A DNA stretch of 64,000 bases from Cyanobacteria bacterium SIG31 (GTDB lineage: Bacteria > Cyanobacteriota > Vampirovibrionia > Gastranaerophilales > Gastranaerophilaceae), in the NCBI GenBank assembly GCA_015152465.1, contig SUTX01000005.1, positions 10,528 to 74,527 on the forward strand, in the 5' to 3' direction. Below the pieces are notes generated by a model, which saw only the letters and a list, made by a program, of their open reading frames with translations, had not been told where the DNA came from and searched no databases. Positions 7,701-53,318 of this stretch are shown here, piece after piece. Within the stretch, counting starts at the first letter, position 1. Each line of letters begins with the position of its first letter. A program made the position numbers and the translations under genes.

Positions 7701-9197
7701 ATGTGTAGACATTATTATATGAAAAATAGATTGGAAACTATGATGAAGATTCATACAACGCAAAATCTAAATTCTTTAAGTACAAATCAATCAACAAGTG
7801 TATCGAATACAAAGAATGATAGATTAAAACGAGCAGAAAATTCTTATTTGGGTTCGAATGGTTTAGCGAGTTTGCCTGATACCATTTCGTTTGAAGGCAA
7901 AGGTGAAGCTGTAGAAAAAATTGCAAAAGCTTTGCGTGAAGCAAAATTAGTTCAAAAAATAGAGAGTTCAAAAGTCGCGGGTAAAAAGAGTATAACAGAG
8001 AAGATTCTTTCAAGCGACTTTTTTGATGGTCTATTAGACTTAATGACTCACGAAACATTTATTCAGGCTGCTATTTCATTCTTAATTTGTGTATTCTTGA
8101 GACCATTGACTATTATGTCTTTGCCAACAAAAAAATCGAAAGAAGACAATAAGTATGCTTCTGCTCACTCAATGTCTTCTGGTTTTGTTGGGCTTGCATC
8201 TTCTGTTTTAATTGCAATTCCTTTTTCAAAAGGTTTAAAATATGCACAAAATAACATGATTGCAAATCTAAAAGAAGAAACTTTGAAAAGAATGTTTCCA
8301 CACTTAGATTTGAAATCTATAGTTGATTCAGCTGGCAAACGTATTACCGATATGAAACAATGGAAAGATAAATTCGGTAATGTCTTCTCAAAAGATATGA
8401 AGAATGCAATGCTAATTGCAAAACCAATTCATGCAACTGAAATCGGTGAAAAGACTTGGGAAAAATTCGGAATTAAACTTAATAAAGAAGCTAATAAAGG
8501 CAAGGCTATAGCTGAATGGATTGATTTAGATGGTAAAAGAGTGGTCGAAAAATTAGGGTTGAAAGATTTTTGTATTGCTGTTGAAGAAGCTGGTATGGGT
8601 TCAACACTTGGTAAAGGATATAAAAATACAAACTTTTTCTCATTGAAATATATAGGTGATGATTTGCTAGAAGCAGCATGTAAGGACTTAGACATTGCTT
8701 CTACTAAGGGGGCTAATGGTGAAAGACTACACCCTATTCATTGGAAGAACAAAGCAACAGGAAATGCTTATACAGAAATATTTGACGCAACACACTTGTC
8801 ATCATATACAGAAACTGCTGATTCAGTGCCTTTGTTCTTAAGTAAAGTTAGAACTGAATCAGGAACTGGTAAAACTAAATATACTGCTTTACAATCAAAT
8901 GTGGAATACCAAACTAGGGTTGGTGTTCCTGAAAAGATAGGCTCAGAAATTGAGCAAGCAAGTTTGGATGCAGATAAAGTTAGTGATATCCAAAATAAAT
9001 GGGTAGTTTGGTTGCCAGATATTATATCAAGACCGCTAGTTGCAACTGCTACTATTGCGTTGTTGCCTAAGATATTGAAAAACGTTTTTCACTTAGAAAA
9101 ACCTAAAAAACATCAAGCAACACCTGCTGTTCAACAAAACCAACTTGAAGGGGAAAATGCAAAACTTGCATTAACTTCCGGAAAGGAGGTGGCATAA
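7701..9197 (+). CDS. Hypothetical membrane protein (module A family, ISFEG leader); start probably 7740 or 7743
   Basis: Long ORF, Ser/Asn/Thr-rich N-terminus, hydrophobic hairpins near both ends. Confidence 0.75.
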   Translation: MCRHYYMKNRLETMMKIHTTQNLNSLSTNQSTSVSNTKNDRLKRAENSYLGSNGLASLPDTISFEGKGEAVEKIAKALREAKLVQKIESSKVAGKKSITEKILSSDFFDGLLDLMTHETFIQAAISFLICVFLRPLTIMSLPTKKSKEDNKYASAHSMSSGFVGLASSVLIAIPFSKGLKYAQNNMIANLKEETLKRMFPHLDLKSIVDSAGKRITDMKQWKDKFGNVFSKDMKNAMLIAKPIHATEIGEKTWEKFGIKLNKEANKGKAIAEWIDLDGKRVVEKLGLKDFCIAVEEAGMGSTLGKGYKNTNFFSLKYIGDDLLEAACKDLDIASTKGANGERLHPIHWKNKATGNAYTEIFDATHLSSYTETADSVPLFLSKVRTESGTGKTKYTALQSNVEYQTRVGVPEKIGSEIEQASLDADKVSDIQNKWVVWLPDIISRPLVATATIALLPKILKNVFHLEKPKKHQATPAVQQNQLEGENAKLALTSGKEVA

Positions 9198-9898
9198 TGA
9201 ATATCCAAGCAATTAGTAGAGCTCAACAATCTTATATGCTAAATAAACGATATGCTAATACTCCGTCTAGTAATCCAGTTGGTTCACTTGATACAGAGCA
9301 AAATGCAAATCAAGTTAATCCAAGCTTCAAAGGCTTAGGGGATTTTATTGGTAGAGTGTTTGGTGAACATTATGCAAAACGTATGCTTGATGCAAAATGG
9401 ACTCGTAACCTTGCTGAGTGGTTAACAAAAGCTCCTGGTAGTATGACTGAGCACATGGCAACACTAGGGTCATTAATTACAAGTAGCGTATATATGGGAA
9501 GAACTCTTTCTAATAAAGAGCTAGAAAATGATAAGAAAAAAACTCTTGCTATCAATCAGTTCTTATGTTTCTTGATTCCAACAGCAGCTGCTTATACAGT
9601 TAATAGTGTGCTTGCAGGGGTGAATAAAAAGCTTGAGCACAAGTACTCTGGTATACAATCGCAAAAAATAGCTTGGGGAGAAATATCTCAAGAAAAAGCT
9701 GCTGAAATCTTAAAGAAAAAGAGTGATAGACTAAAAGGTTTTAAAACACTATCAACATTAGCTACATTCACTCTAATTTACAGATACATAACACCAGTTA
9801 TTATTACGCCAGCTGCAAACTGGATTGGTGGAAAATTAAATAAGCGTAGCGAAGAGAAAAAAGCTAATGAGCAAAAATCTCAGGGGGCTGTGGCTTAA
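9197..9898 (+). CDS. Hypothetical membrane protein (module B family, PSFKG leader)
   Basis: TAATG overlap with upstream gene, RBS aaggaggtg, hydrophobic segments. Confidence 0.8.
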   Translation: MNIQAISRAQQSYMLNKRYANTPSSNPVGSLDTEQNANQVNPSFKGLGDFIGRVFGEHYAKRMLDAKWTRNLAEWLTKAPGSMTEHMATLGSLITSSVYMGRTLSNKELENDKKKTLAINQFLCFLIPTAAAYTVNSVLAGVNKKLEHKYSGIQSQKIAWGEISQEKAAEILKKKSDRLKGFKTLSTLATFTLIYRYITPVIITPAANWIGGKLNKRSEEKKANEQKSQGAVA

Positions 9899-51364: not shown

Positions 51365-51616
51365 ATGTTACCAATCATAACAGAGGAAATTTCAACAGAA
51401 ATTTTTGGTGAAGTATTTCAAGATGTTCAAGCATGGCGTAAAAATATGGTTCAATATCTAAAAGAAGAAAATCCTGAAATTAATACAGCTATTCTTGAAG
51501 TCGCAAAATATGATGAAGGTATTGATTTAAAAGCTGTAGCTTTAGGAGCTTACCTCTCATATAGATTAATTGAAATTGCAACTGAAAATGATACCTTGAT
51601 GACTATTGAGGAATAG
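51365..51616 (+). CDS. Small acidic hypothetical protein
   Basis: RBS aggagata, 83 aa. Confidence 0.7.
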   Translation: MLPIITEEISTEIFGEVFQDVQAWRKNMVQYLKEENPEINTAILEVAKYDEGIDLKAVALGAYLSYRLIEIATENDTLMTIEE

Positions 51617-52613
51617 AGTTCTCGTTCTTCTTTTTAACGCTATCGATTCTATCAGCAGCAAAAGTTGATAGTACTGGTATTATAATGTAATAAACAACAG
51701 CCATGATTAGTATTGGTTTTGCAATTTTAATCCCCTCTAAGTATTCAGGGAGCTTCTTATCGTTTTTATTAGCTAACTTAAATTTTTCAATAAATTTTTT
51801 TGCTGGATTTTCGGTTATTTTATCTATAAAATAACTTGTTATAATGCTAAGTCCGGTAGATATAGCTGAGTTATAAATTAAAGGTTTCTTGTCTTTTTCT
51901 TCAAGTTTTTTATTTTTTGCTGTTTGATAGATAAATGTTGCTGTGGTTAAACTATCTGTTGCGGCTATAATATGCATTGGGAAGTTAGAATCTTTATATT
52001 TATTAGAAAATTCTTGTATAGTTTTTTTATTTAAAATTTTACTAATGCCTTTAGAAAGCTTATCATTACCTTTAAAAGTTAAATTATTAACCTGCTTTTT
52101 GTCCTTTATATCATTATTTTCTGCATTCTCTTTTATAAATATATTAAGGATAAACGGTGTGGTCGCTGCTGTTAAAATAGCCTTAGGTACTGCTATTATG
52201 AAACCTAATCCCAGTTTAAAAAGTTGTGTTGCCAACGAGTAAACTTTTGATTCTTTTAAGCTAGAAGCTCCATTTTTTAAGCTACTTATTGCTTCTTTTG
52301 TTAAGTATTTATCGGGGTTTTTATCAATATTCTTAATGGATTTAGCTAATGGTAAAGAAAAAGCTAACATCATAAAATAACCGATAGCCGTTGATGATAT
52401 TGATTTTGCACATGCGACTTGTTTATTTTTTTTGTCTGTTTTTGGGGTTGCTAATATTGCAATAGGTCTTACGGTGGTTGAGAACACTAAAGATGTTGTG
52501 CCAGCAAATAATGTACCGTTTTTAGCAGCAAATTCTAAGCCTTTTTTTAAGACTTTGCTATCCCATAATCCGGCAAAAGAAATATTTCGTTTATCTGTAT
52601 AATTTACTTTCAT
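51603..52613 (-). CDS. Hypothetical membrane protein, fusion of module A and module B families
   Basis: ISFAG leader, internal LTFKG, similarity by eye to 7701-9197 and 9197-9898. Confidence 0.8.
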   Translation of the reverse strand: MKVNYTDKRNISFAGLWDSKVLKKGLEFAAKNGTLFAGTTSLVFSTTVRPIAILATPKTDKKNKQVACAKSISSTAIGYFMMLAFSLPLAKSIKNIDKNPDKYLTKEAISSLKNGASSLKESKVYSLATQLFKLGLGFIIAVPKAILTAATTPFILNIFIKENAENNDIKDKKQVNNLTFKGNDKLSKGISKILNKKTIQEFSNKYKDSNFPMHIIAATDSLTTATFIYQTAKNKKLEEKDKKPLIYNSAISTGLSIITSYFIDKITENPAKKFIEKFKLANKNDKKLPEYLEGIKIAKPILIMAVVYYIIIPVLSTFAADRIDSVKKKNENSIPQ

Positions 52614-52637
52614 CTTTTTTTATTAGATAACATAAAT

Positions 52638-53318
52638 ATGGATAAGATTAAAGTTGGAAATAAAAAGATATTTGAAATACTATTTTTGCTATCTATAATA
52701 GTGTTTATTATTTTTCATGCGTATTATAGAAATGACAACCCTATTGCGGTAATTTCTGCTATTTGTGGAATTACATATACTTTTATTGCAGGTAAAGGTA
52801 ATCCTATTTGCTATTTATTTGGTGTTACTGGTTCTGCATTTTATTGTATTTTATCGTTTCAAAATAACCTCTGGGGAAATTTGTTATTGTATGCTGTGTA
52901 TTATTTGCCAATGCAAATTGTCGGCTTTTTTAAATGGAATAAAAATCTTAAAGATGGAGAAAATACTATAATAAAAATTAAATTACCCAAAAAGGAACTT
53001 TGTCTTTTGATTTCATTACTTACAATTATTTCATTTTTTGTATATATAACTTTAGTTTTTTCACACGATGCGAACCCTATATTGGATAGCATCACAACCG
53101 TGTTTTCGATAGGTGGAATGTATCTGACTGTAAGAAGAGCAATTGAACAATGGCTCTTCTGGTTAGGCGTAAATATTTTAACCTTAGCTATGTGGATATC
53201 AATTGCTATGAGTGGTGTGAGAGTTTATTCTACAATTATAATGTGGGCAGTTTATTTAGTTTTAGCAGTATATTTTTACTTTGACTGGAAAAAAGAACTA
53301 AATACAAGAACTATTTAA
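52638..53318 (+). CDS. pnuC: PnuC-family nucleoside/vitamin transporter
   Basis: Multi-TM, GFFKW, P.LDSITTVFS, EQWLFW..VN. Confidence 0.88.
   Translation: MDKIKVGNKKIFEILFLLSIIVFIIFHAYYRNDNPIAVISAICGITYTFIAGKGNPICYLFGVTGSAFYCILSFQNNLWGNLLLYAVYYLPMQIVGFFKWNKNLKDGENTIIKIKLPKKELCLLISLLTIISFFVYITLVFSHDANPILDSITTVFSIGGMYLTVRRAIEQWLFWLGVNILTLAMWISIAMSGVRVYSTIIMWAVYLVLAVYFYFDWKKELNTRTI

Follow-up and report, generated by a model that had tools for sequence, protein, structure and literature searches.

The window analysed here, a stretch of 64,000 nucleotides of Cyanobacteria bacterium SIG31 (order Gastranaerophilales; GenBank assembly GCA_015152465.1, contig SUTX01000005.1, positions 10,528 to 74,527 of the forward strand), contains two loci for related two-part proteins with predicted membrane-spanning helices. 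At one locus both parts are encoded by a single gene, F; at the other they are encoded by two adjacent genes, A and B. The two parts are referred to as the N-type module (A, or residues 1-170 of F) and the C-type module (B, or residues 171-336 of F). F, A and B each begin with a short N-terminal leader sequence, designated the tag, which ends in an F-K-G-type motif. The features of the two loci are as follows.

51603 to 52613, minus strand: F, an open reading frame (ORF) for a fused two-module protein of 336 residues, the F-type paralogue
52104 to 52613, minus strand: N-type module of F (residues 1-170), from profile comparison with the A family, hidden Markov model (HMM) scores against shuffles, and invariant columns
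51606 to 52103, minus strand: C-type module of F (residues 171-336), from profile and BLASTP comparison with B and HMM scores against shuffles
52068 to 52088, minus strand: NNLTFKG, an internal tag remnant at the module junction of F, from the translation
7701 to 9197, plus strand: A, an N-type module with an alpha/beta insert of about 240 residues that separates its second from its third hydrophobic helix, 498 residues as the longest ORF
8298 to 8990, plus strand: insert domain of A (approximately residues 200-430), of mixed alpha/beta structure in the model of the related fusion protein P0219
9184 to 9199, plus strand: A/B junction, with an AGGAGG ribosome-binding site and a TAA/ATG overlap, from the sequence
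9197 to 9898, plus strand: B, an ORF for a C-type module of 233 residues with its own tag MNIQAIS...PSFKG (motif at 9320-9334)

The N-type module of F consists of the tag (MKVN...ISFAG), amphipathic helices, a hydrophobic hairpin and a third hydrophobic helix. The residues that are invariant in the F family, Arg49, Pro57, Ala67, Ser74 and Pro88, cluster in the hairpin. At the other locus the overlap of A and B, to which a previous inspection of the letters and their translated reading frames (the sequence-only reading) had drawn attention, is real: the stop codon of A (TAA, 9195-9197) shares one nucleotide with the start codon of B (ATG, 9197-9199), with the AGGAGG sequence at 9184-9189. From this arrangement A and B are to be regarded as translationally coupled genes. 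The start of A is probably the ATG at 7743 (MKIHTT...), since the consensus N-terminus of the A family reads MKIHTTQNL and this start provides A with the usual tag-type N-terminus; position 7701 lies too far upstream. A database protein identical to A is called at 492 residues, as compared to 498 for the longest ORF.

The sequence-only reading had proposed that F joins the products of A and B in one polypeptide. In pairwise BLASTP comparisons the C-terminal half of F matches B with an E-value of 7e-6, and the N-terminal half matches A with an E-value of 0.24. As the latter is not significant by itself, family profiles were needed. Using hhalign, the N-terminal half of F aligns with the A family (98.3%, E = 1.2e-14) and the C-terminal half with the B family (97.3%, E = 2e-11), whereas the crossed pairs are not significant (E = 0.27 for the N-terminal half with B and 0.021 for the C-terminal half with A). 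All four peptide pairs by which F had been matched by eye to A and B are found in register, three of them (one of F and A, both of F and B) in the BLASTP alignments and the third-helix pair of F and A with sliced profiles. Such profiles of the third helices pair specifically, with E-values of 3.7e-4 (F with A) and 2.5e-4, against 0.2 and 0.06 for the crossed comparisons. Among the homologues, BLAST searches with the N-terminal half of F find members of the A family (E-values down to 7e-13), and those with the C-terminal half find members of the B family (down to 2e-9). More than 900 homologues of F (300-350 residues), 90 of A and 76 of B are known, all of them unnamed proteins from gut and rumen metagenome-assembled genomes. 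Within its own genome of 1.68 Mb, the only weak relatives of F are A and B, in the correct order.

It may be argued that these similarities are a compositional artefact of Lys-rich hydrophobic sequence of low complexity, or else that A and B are independent proteins which are adjacent only through tandem duplication. The insignificant pairwise E-value of F and A, the AT-rich genome with its Lys-rich loops, and the possibility that A and B descend from a duplication are in favour of such a view. The artefact is contradicted by a control in which F was shuffled 1000 times inside windows of 12 residues, which keeps both its composition and the positions of its hydrophobic segments. F itself reaches 51.9 bits with the A-family HMM, whereas the best of the shuffled sequences reaches 7.1 bits (z = 22); with the B-family HMM the corresponding values are 36.4 and 11.2 bits (z = 18). 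The reciprocal tests give z-scores of 17.7 and 19.5, and the crossed tests remain at noise level (2.0 and -0.7). The regions of F matched by the A and B HMMs, residues 15-110 and 162-288, respectively, do not overlap. The outcome that would have spoken against homology, alignments no better than those of composition-matched shuffles, is therefore not observed, as F scores 18-22 standard deviations above its shuffles and the profile E-values are of the order of 1e-14 and 2e-11.

Separate A and B proteins are each homologous to a distinct part of F, the relationship known in the usage of Marcotte and Enright as a Rosetta-stone fusion, and both split and fused kinds are present inside the genus to which the window belongs. 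By these sequence comparisons F is confirmed as a fused version of the two-part protein type that A and B encode separately. The view of F as a Rosetta-stone fusion holds insofar as an A-type module is followed by a B-type module in one chain; it does not hold if F is taken to be the fusion of A and B themselves. Judged from its homologues, F is a separate and older paralogue of the A+B unit, and it is present in nearly every genome beside an A/B locus.

The split and fused forms of the A/B-type locus were surveyed in 38 fetched loci together with that of the window, 39 in total, representing about 25 genera in four families of the order. The loci were picked to span genera and frame lengths and form a non-random sample. 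In all 39 the A-type module directly precedes the B-type module, either as separate genes (28 loci) or fused in a single gene for 411-708 residues (11 loci). Stop and start codons overlap by 1 nucleotide in 23 of the 28 split pairs and by 10-14 nucleotides in another four, and a gap of 17 nucleotides separates the genes of the remaining pair. Among the 90 A homologues, 32 are A-B fusions of 660-770 residues, the B part of which is 36-54% identical to the B protein of the window. Two of the three congeners sampled have A-B fusions of 696-708 residues; the third is the split pair with the 17-nucleotide gap. On a maximum-likelihood tree at least eight changes between the split and the fused state are required, at least six of which are forced by supported branches, and the split A/B pair of the window is the sister (99% support) of a fused gene from the same genus. 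The real labels, split or fused, show no clustering on the tree beyond that of shuffled ones. The survey, which had been suggested as a check on the fusion, thus finds the modules adjacent or fused at every locus, in states that have changed repeatedly.

The F-type copy shows the same behaviour. It is fused in two families of the order (f1 and f9), and in a third (f8) it is split into genes for 265-267 and 188-192 residues, with a 1-nucleotide overlap or a 2-nucleotide gap (L127, 4250-5625; L128, 3917-5289). In this third family the A/B-type copy is fused (570 residues; L099 and L100), an arrangement opposite to that in the window. As a consequence, both paralogue lineages display both states. 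Three candidate short fused forms (P0286-P0288, 334-342 residues) were rejected, as they are A-like proteins with a shorter insert, and suspected internal stops in three F-type genes were discarded, as their ORFs are intact. The full-length insert of A is found only in the window's own genus; A-type proteins elsewhere have 244-382 residues. The family occurs in 98 of 99 Gastranaerophilaceae genomes sampled, typically with three module matches per genome, and in none of the roughly 150 genomes sampled elsewhere in the phylum. On this sampling it is an unannotated core family restricted to the Gastranaerophilales, with two copies per genome. The invariant order and adjacency in 39 loci, the six or more independent changes between split and fused states, and the one-nucleotide coupling are not what independent proteins would show. 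Together with the shuffle control they make either form of the artefact-or-independence argument extremely improbable.

AlphaFold2 (AF2) models of F (pLDDT, the predicted local distance difference test, of 81; predicted template modelling score, pTM, of 0.71) and of the natural A-B fusion P0219 (pLDDT of 81, pTM of 0.77) each form a single confident assembly. In these models each module comprises a disordered leader, two short helices, a hairpin of two helices (23 and about 38 residues) and a further helix about 40 residues long. Both models have a disordered linker between the modules, and the same helix pattern recurs in both halves. Since fusion has occurred repeatedly via short disordered linkers, the C-terminus of A and the N-terminus of B are expected to reside on the same side of the membrane. 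The alpha/beta insert domain of P0219 (residues 181-387) is modelled with a pLDDT of about 90, and a Foldseek search with the fusion model yields no PDB match for it. Family-averaged Kyte-Doolittle values of the hydrophobic helices are 1.6-2.0 for the three helices of A, and 1.65 and 2.16 in F.

When broad profiles are used, the N-type and C-type modules can be aligned with each other over 83 columns (82%, E = 1.1e-5), with the amphipathic helix, the first hydrophobic helix, the Lys-rich turn and the second hydrophobic helix in register; with narrow profiles the E-value is 0.007 and the probability 5%. The in-register alignment suggests that one module probably gave rise to both A and B by a very old duplication.

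The sequence-only reading had further noted that each half of F opens with a motif of the F-K-G type. The heptapeptide NNLTFKG is indeed encoded exactly at 52068-52088, yet the motif is not specific to the modules. A check of the whole genome reveals about 25 proteins, unrelated in their downstream parts, each of which begins with a non-hydrophobic leader that is rich in Asn, Ser and Thr and follows the pattern M-K-I-x-P-I-N...[PIV]-[ST]-F-K-[GAS]. Sequence motifs, rather than a family scan, suggest that among them are an AAA+ ATPase, a metallophosphatase, methyltransferase-like proteins, several peptidases and small membrane proteins. Tagged genes in the window start at 9197, 15852, 24350, 52613 and 60291, and about 20 more are located on other contigs. 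As so many unrelated proteins of the genome start with it, the F-K-G motif is best described, from sequence, as the second half of an N-terminal tag. One tagged protein of 556 residues (contig C9, start 119403, minus strand) contains ...SSPSFKG..., a hydrophobic N-terminal region, a large polar middle part and a C-terminal hydrophobic helix with the sequence I-I-P. To the eye it recalls the architecture of A; the genome search with F does not detect it as a homologue.

The second half of the tag is also retained inside fused proteins. At the junction of F, Phe180 and Gly182 are at least 90% conserved in the F family, and a sequence x-[STAGN]-F-x-G immediately precedes the C-type module in all 10 fused A/B-type proteins whose junctions were inspected (the 11 fused proteins except L093). 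The first half (MNIxxI), on the other hand, decays at fusion junctions into a low-complexity linker. The window's M16 peptidase (start 60291, minus strand) has a tagged N-terminus and an internal NNISFKG between its two halves. A purely N-terminal address signal would not predict that the second half is kept inside fused chains, and it is this internal conservation at module junctions that appears to be new here. No description of the tag, or of the family, is found in the literature searched.

A possible explanation is that the internal x-S-F-K-G is a processing or recognition site, at which fused chains are cut or by which the modules are recognised separately by a tag-reading machinery. In that case the mature products would be identical whether the genes are split or fused, and the state could flip freely, which fits with the absence of clustering on the tree beyond that of shuffled labels. 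The conservation of the motif at the junctions and the decay of the preceding half, the predicted disorder of the junction linkers, and the occurrence of the tag on many unrelated proteins and within the two-domain M16 peptidase point in the same direction. However, the motif could simply belong to the structure of the module, since in the A-B fusion model it adopts the form of a short strand, and we regard cleavage or separate recognition as distinctly unlikely. The related and more general proposal that x-S-F-K-G is read by a routing or processing system common to the Gastranaerophilales, with the family as a client of that system or even as one of its membrane components, seems unlikely as well. 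If it is correct, F, fused A-B proteins and the M16 peptidase would be recognised or cleaved at their internal motifs, which would render fission and fusion selectively neutral; the second half of the tag would then act irrespective of its position, and the first half would require a free N-terminus. Genes that have been split and fused many times while keeping the junction motif may in this respect serve as a natural experiment on the MKINxI...SFKG tag.

The surroundings of the two loci provide hints as to function. Upstream of F, two further features are present.

52600 to 52653, spanning both strands: near-invariant DNA block of 55 nucleotides at the divergent starts of F and pnuC, from an alignment of 48 loci
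52638 to 53318, plus strand: pnuC, of the nicotinamide riboside/nicotinamide mononucleotide (NMN) transporter family (Pfam PF04973, E = 2.7e-41), the divergent neighbour of F

In family f1, 76 of 80 loci have pnuC next to F in divergent orientation, as do both loci of f9; the spacing between the start codons is 24 bp in 47 of 56 loci. The block covers both start codons, the 24-bp spacer and the first four to five codons of each gene. Its columns are 98-100% identical nearly throughout positions -27 to +12 (two positions are 77-83% identical) and at -39 to -37. In comparison, its flanks are 40-70% identical and the proteins of the same 48 loci are only 50-60% identical. The block is unique in the genome, and the region between F and pnuC has no match in Rfam. 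Such near-invariance implies joint control of F and pnuC, and also explains the invariant MKVN start of F; the block may be a compact bidirectional control region. A leaderless bidirectional promoter was considered and is unsupported, as a scan with the sigma-70 consensus reveals no strong promoter inside the block. A sigma-70-like site (TTGAAA-16-TATAAT, 11/12) is located at 52672-52699 on the plus strand, within the first 60 nucleotides of the pnuC ORF; shuffled sequence predicts as many sites of this kind for the region, and this one may be due to chance.

The A/B-type locus has neighbours that are likewise related to nicotinamide adenine dinucleotide (NAD). The order nadB-nadC-A-B, on the same strand and with a gap of about 170 bp, is found in seven genera (g2, g5, g7, g9, g10, g11 and g12). 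In several loci (L084-L089, L102, L103 and L106-L110) it belongs to a longer conserved series on one strand, nadB-nadC-(A-B)-HEAT repeat protein-queC-DUF366. The genome of the window has nadBC, the HEAT-queC-DUF366 genes and A/B on three different contigs (C1, C8 and C22, respectively). The presence of two NAD-gene associations for two paralogous loci is suggestive, not compelling.

The mechanism best supported by these comparisons is an obligate 1:1 pairing of N-type and C-type modules, to which we assign a probability of roughly 0.8. In the working unit an N-type module would always precede a C-type module, the two being of different kinds. In addition to the x-S-F-K-G tag motif and short amphipathic helices, each of them would contribute two hydrophobic helices joined as a hairpin by a Lys-rich turn, and then a long third one. 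By this account the window holds two paralogous units, F as one polypeptide and A/B as two coupled genes with an insert in A, and in each of them the modules would come together as one pseudo-symmetric membrane assembly of six helices. What the comparisons show is that the modules are homologous, that their adjacency and order do not vary, that fission and fusion have recurred, and that the split genes are translationally coupled. The obligate heteromeric unit that the sequence-only reading had envisaged for A and B gains support from the adjacency or fusion of the modules in 39 of 39 loci, from the repeated changes of state and from the fusions in congeners. With regard to activity, a small-solute channel, a transporter or a transporter accessory, possibly tied to the handling of NAD precursors, is our guess, and a weak one.

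Several observations weigh against this reading. The helices of the C-type module are weak: only one of them is strongly hydrophobic (2.16 in F), the best helix of the split B protein reaches 1.47, and the others have values of 0.9-1.3. Every loop of F, A and B is net positive without any alternation, which in this Lys-rich proteome is a test of low power. As a consequence no positive-inside signal is present from which the orientation of the modules could be deduced. The homology between N-type and C-type modules is moderately supported, at 82%, and helical membrane segments can inflate such scores. No similarity to a transporter, channel or pore fold is found with Foldseek in the PDB or BFVD, and relatives among pore-forming or translocator families, the functions that the sequence-only reading had suggested for the pair, were not recovered by either sequence or structure. 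Three points concern the link with NAD and apply equally to the alternative discussed next: queuosine genes also lie in the block around nadBC, which has come apart in the genus of the window and in others, no operator is shared upstream of nadB or elsewhere, and pnuC is absent beside the split F-type genes of family f8.

In this alternative the family is the membrane part of an uptake or salvage system for NAD precursors, either as a partner of PnuC or as a separate niacin or quinolinate carrier, with loci that are co-regulated with NAD genes. It accounts for the divergent arrangement of F and pnuC in families f1 and f9, for their common control block, and for the nadB-nadC-A-B order in seven genera. 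By a rough estimate, uncorrected for the post-hoc choice of theme, the probability that two paralogous loci reside beside NAD genes by chance is about 1e-4. The nadBC block, however, also contains the HEAT, queC and DUF366 genes and may reflect inherited synteny (NadB and NadC are 72-83% identical among the genera concerned), and there is no fold similarity to PnuC/SWEET or other transporters. Such a dedicated role is rather unlikely on balance, although the conserved pairing of F and pnuC via the 55-nucleotide block provides a concrete first hypothesis on function.

A different role would follow if the A/B and F proteins were exported, as a two-component pore or translocon that inserts in another membrane, with the tag as an export signal that is possibly read by a flagellar type III apparatus. 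The leader is non-hydrophobic and does not resemble a Sec signal. The long helices (38-45 residues) and the Ser/Thr-rich, moderately hydrophobic hairpins are as in alpha-helical toxins that convert from a soluble to a membrane form. In addition, many Gastranaerophilales are reported to have retained flagellar export genes, for which a role in secretion has been postulated (preprint 10.64898/2026.04.24.720558). Nevertheless, we consider export very unlikely. The Foldseek matches to tripartite alpha-pore-forming toxins are insignificant (E-values of 0.2-0.8, template modelling (TM) scores of 0.13-0.16), no chaperone or secretion gene is adjacent, and many of the tagged proteins are ordinary enzymes of a cytoplasmic type. 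Moreover, a near-universal core gene with two copies per genome is unlike an accessory toxin. The flagellar gate-recognition motif (F-x-x-x-hydrophobic) was also considered for the tag and does not fit consistently by eye. The obligate pairing of N-type and C-type modules is favoured over these alternatives, and the comparative evidence that the two parts of the family act as one unit is clean. For experimental work it follows that A and B should be expressed together.

Searches against known families do not place F, A and B in any of them. The best Pfam-A matches have E-values of 0.06-0.12, far under the cut-offs, the best NCBIfam match reaches E = 0.01 at 15 bits, against cut-offs of 55-361, and PADLOC and PHROGs give no match. 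A profile hmmsearch against PDB sequences returns no match at E <= 1. With Foldseek, the best PDB matches are at E = 0.13 (TM score of 0.22) for F and 0.9 for the A-B fusion, and the best BFVD match of the F model is at E = 0.06; these represent helical-bundle noise, including, in the PDB, generic bundles such as those of G-protein-coupled receptors.

In their organisation the F, A and B proteins nonetheless share features with several known systems. In the ClyA superfamily (Hbl, Nhe, AhlABC and SmhABC), and in the translocator pairs of type III secretion systems, adjacent paralogous genes encode products that act together, and these proteins resemble F, A and B in having long helices and a moderately hydrophobic helical hairpin. 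Fold comparison does not recover for F the elongated ClyA-like helical bundle with its hydrophobic head or tongue. The structural match is poor, with SmhB (PDB entry 7a0g) at E = 0.21, a probability of 0.28 and a TM score of 0.16, and with AhlB (PDB entry 6h2f) at E = 0.84 and a TM score of 0.13. Whereas ClyA-type toxin loci are accessory, the family described here belongs to the core, is present in two copies and occurs throughout the lineage.

SemiSWEET dimers and the fused repeats of SWEET and PnuC are built of three-helix units, as are the modules of F, A and B, and F has pnuC as a conserved neighbour. Unlike these transporters, F has much longer helices (38-45 residues) and large polar loops. 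None of their structures, which are triple-helix bundles of 1-3-2 arrangement, is among the Foldseek matches listed for the F model, and no match is found with the Pfam families MtN3, PQ-loop or NMN_transporter.

Half-size membrane families, such as the UPF0016/Gdt1-type and DUF606-type families and the SMR/EmrE-like pairs, occur as adjacent gene pairs or as fused repeats. They differ from the F, A and B proteins in several respects: there is no similarity in sequence or fold, the two modules of F, A and B can scarcely be recognised as homologous, and each of these modules bears an N-terminal tag motif that is specific to the lineage. Antiparallel pairs are defined by Lys+Arg biases of opposite direction; these are not observed here, all loops being net positive, a comparison which in a Lys-rich proteome has little power. 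The resemblance lies in the use of two related modules of about three helices, encoded by adjacent coupled genes or in one fused chain, in the recurrence of fission and fusion within a lineage, and in a unit that is probably a pseudo-symmetric pair. The occurrence of both adjacent pairs and fused genes, which characterises dual-topology families, is evident here from 28 split and 11 fused loci with a single order, and from family f8, in which the F-type copy is split. Membrane heterodimers that occur in both split and fused form are an already known pattern, and the F, A and B proteins are soundly described as a new, lineage-specific family with a known kind of evolutionary behaviour.

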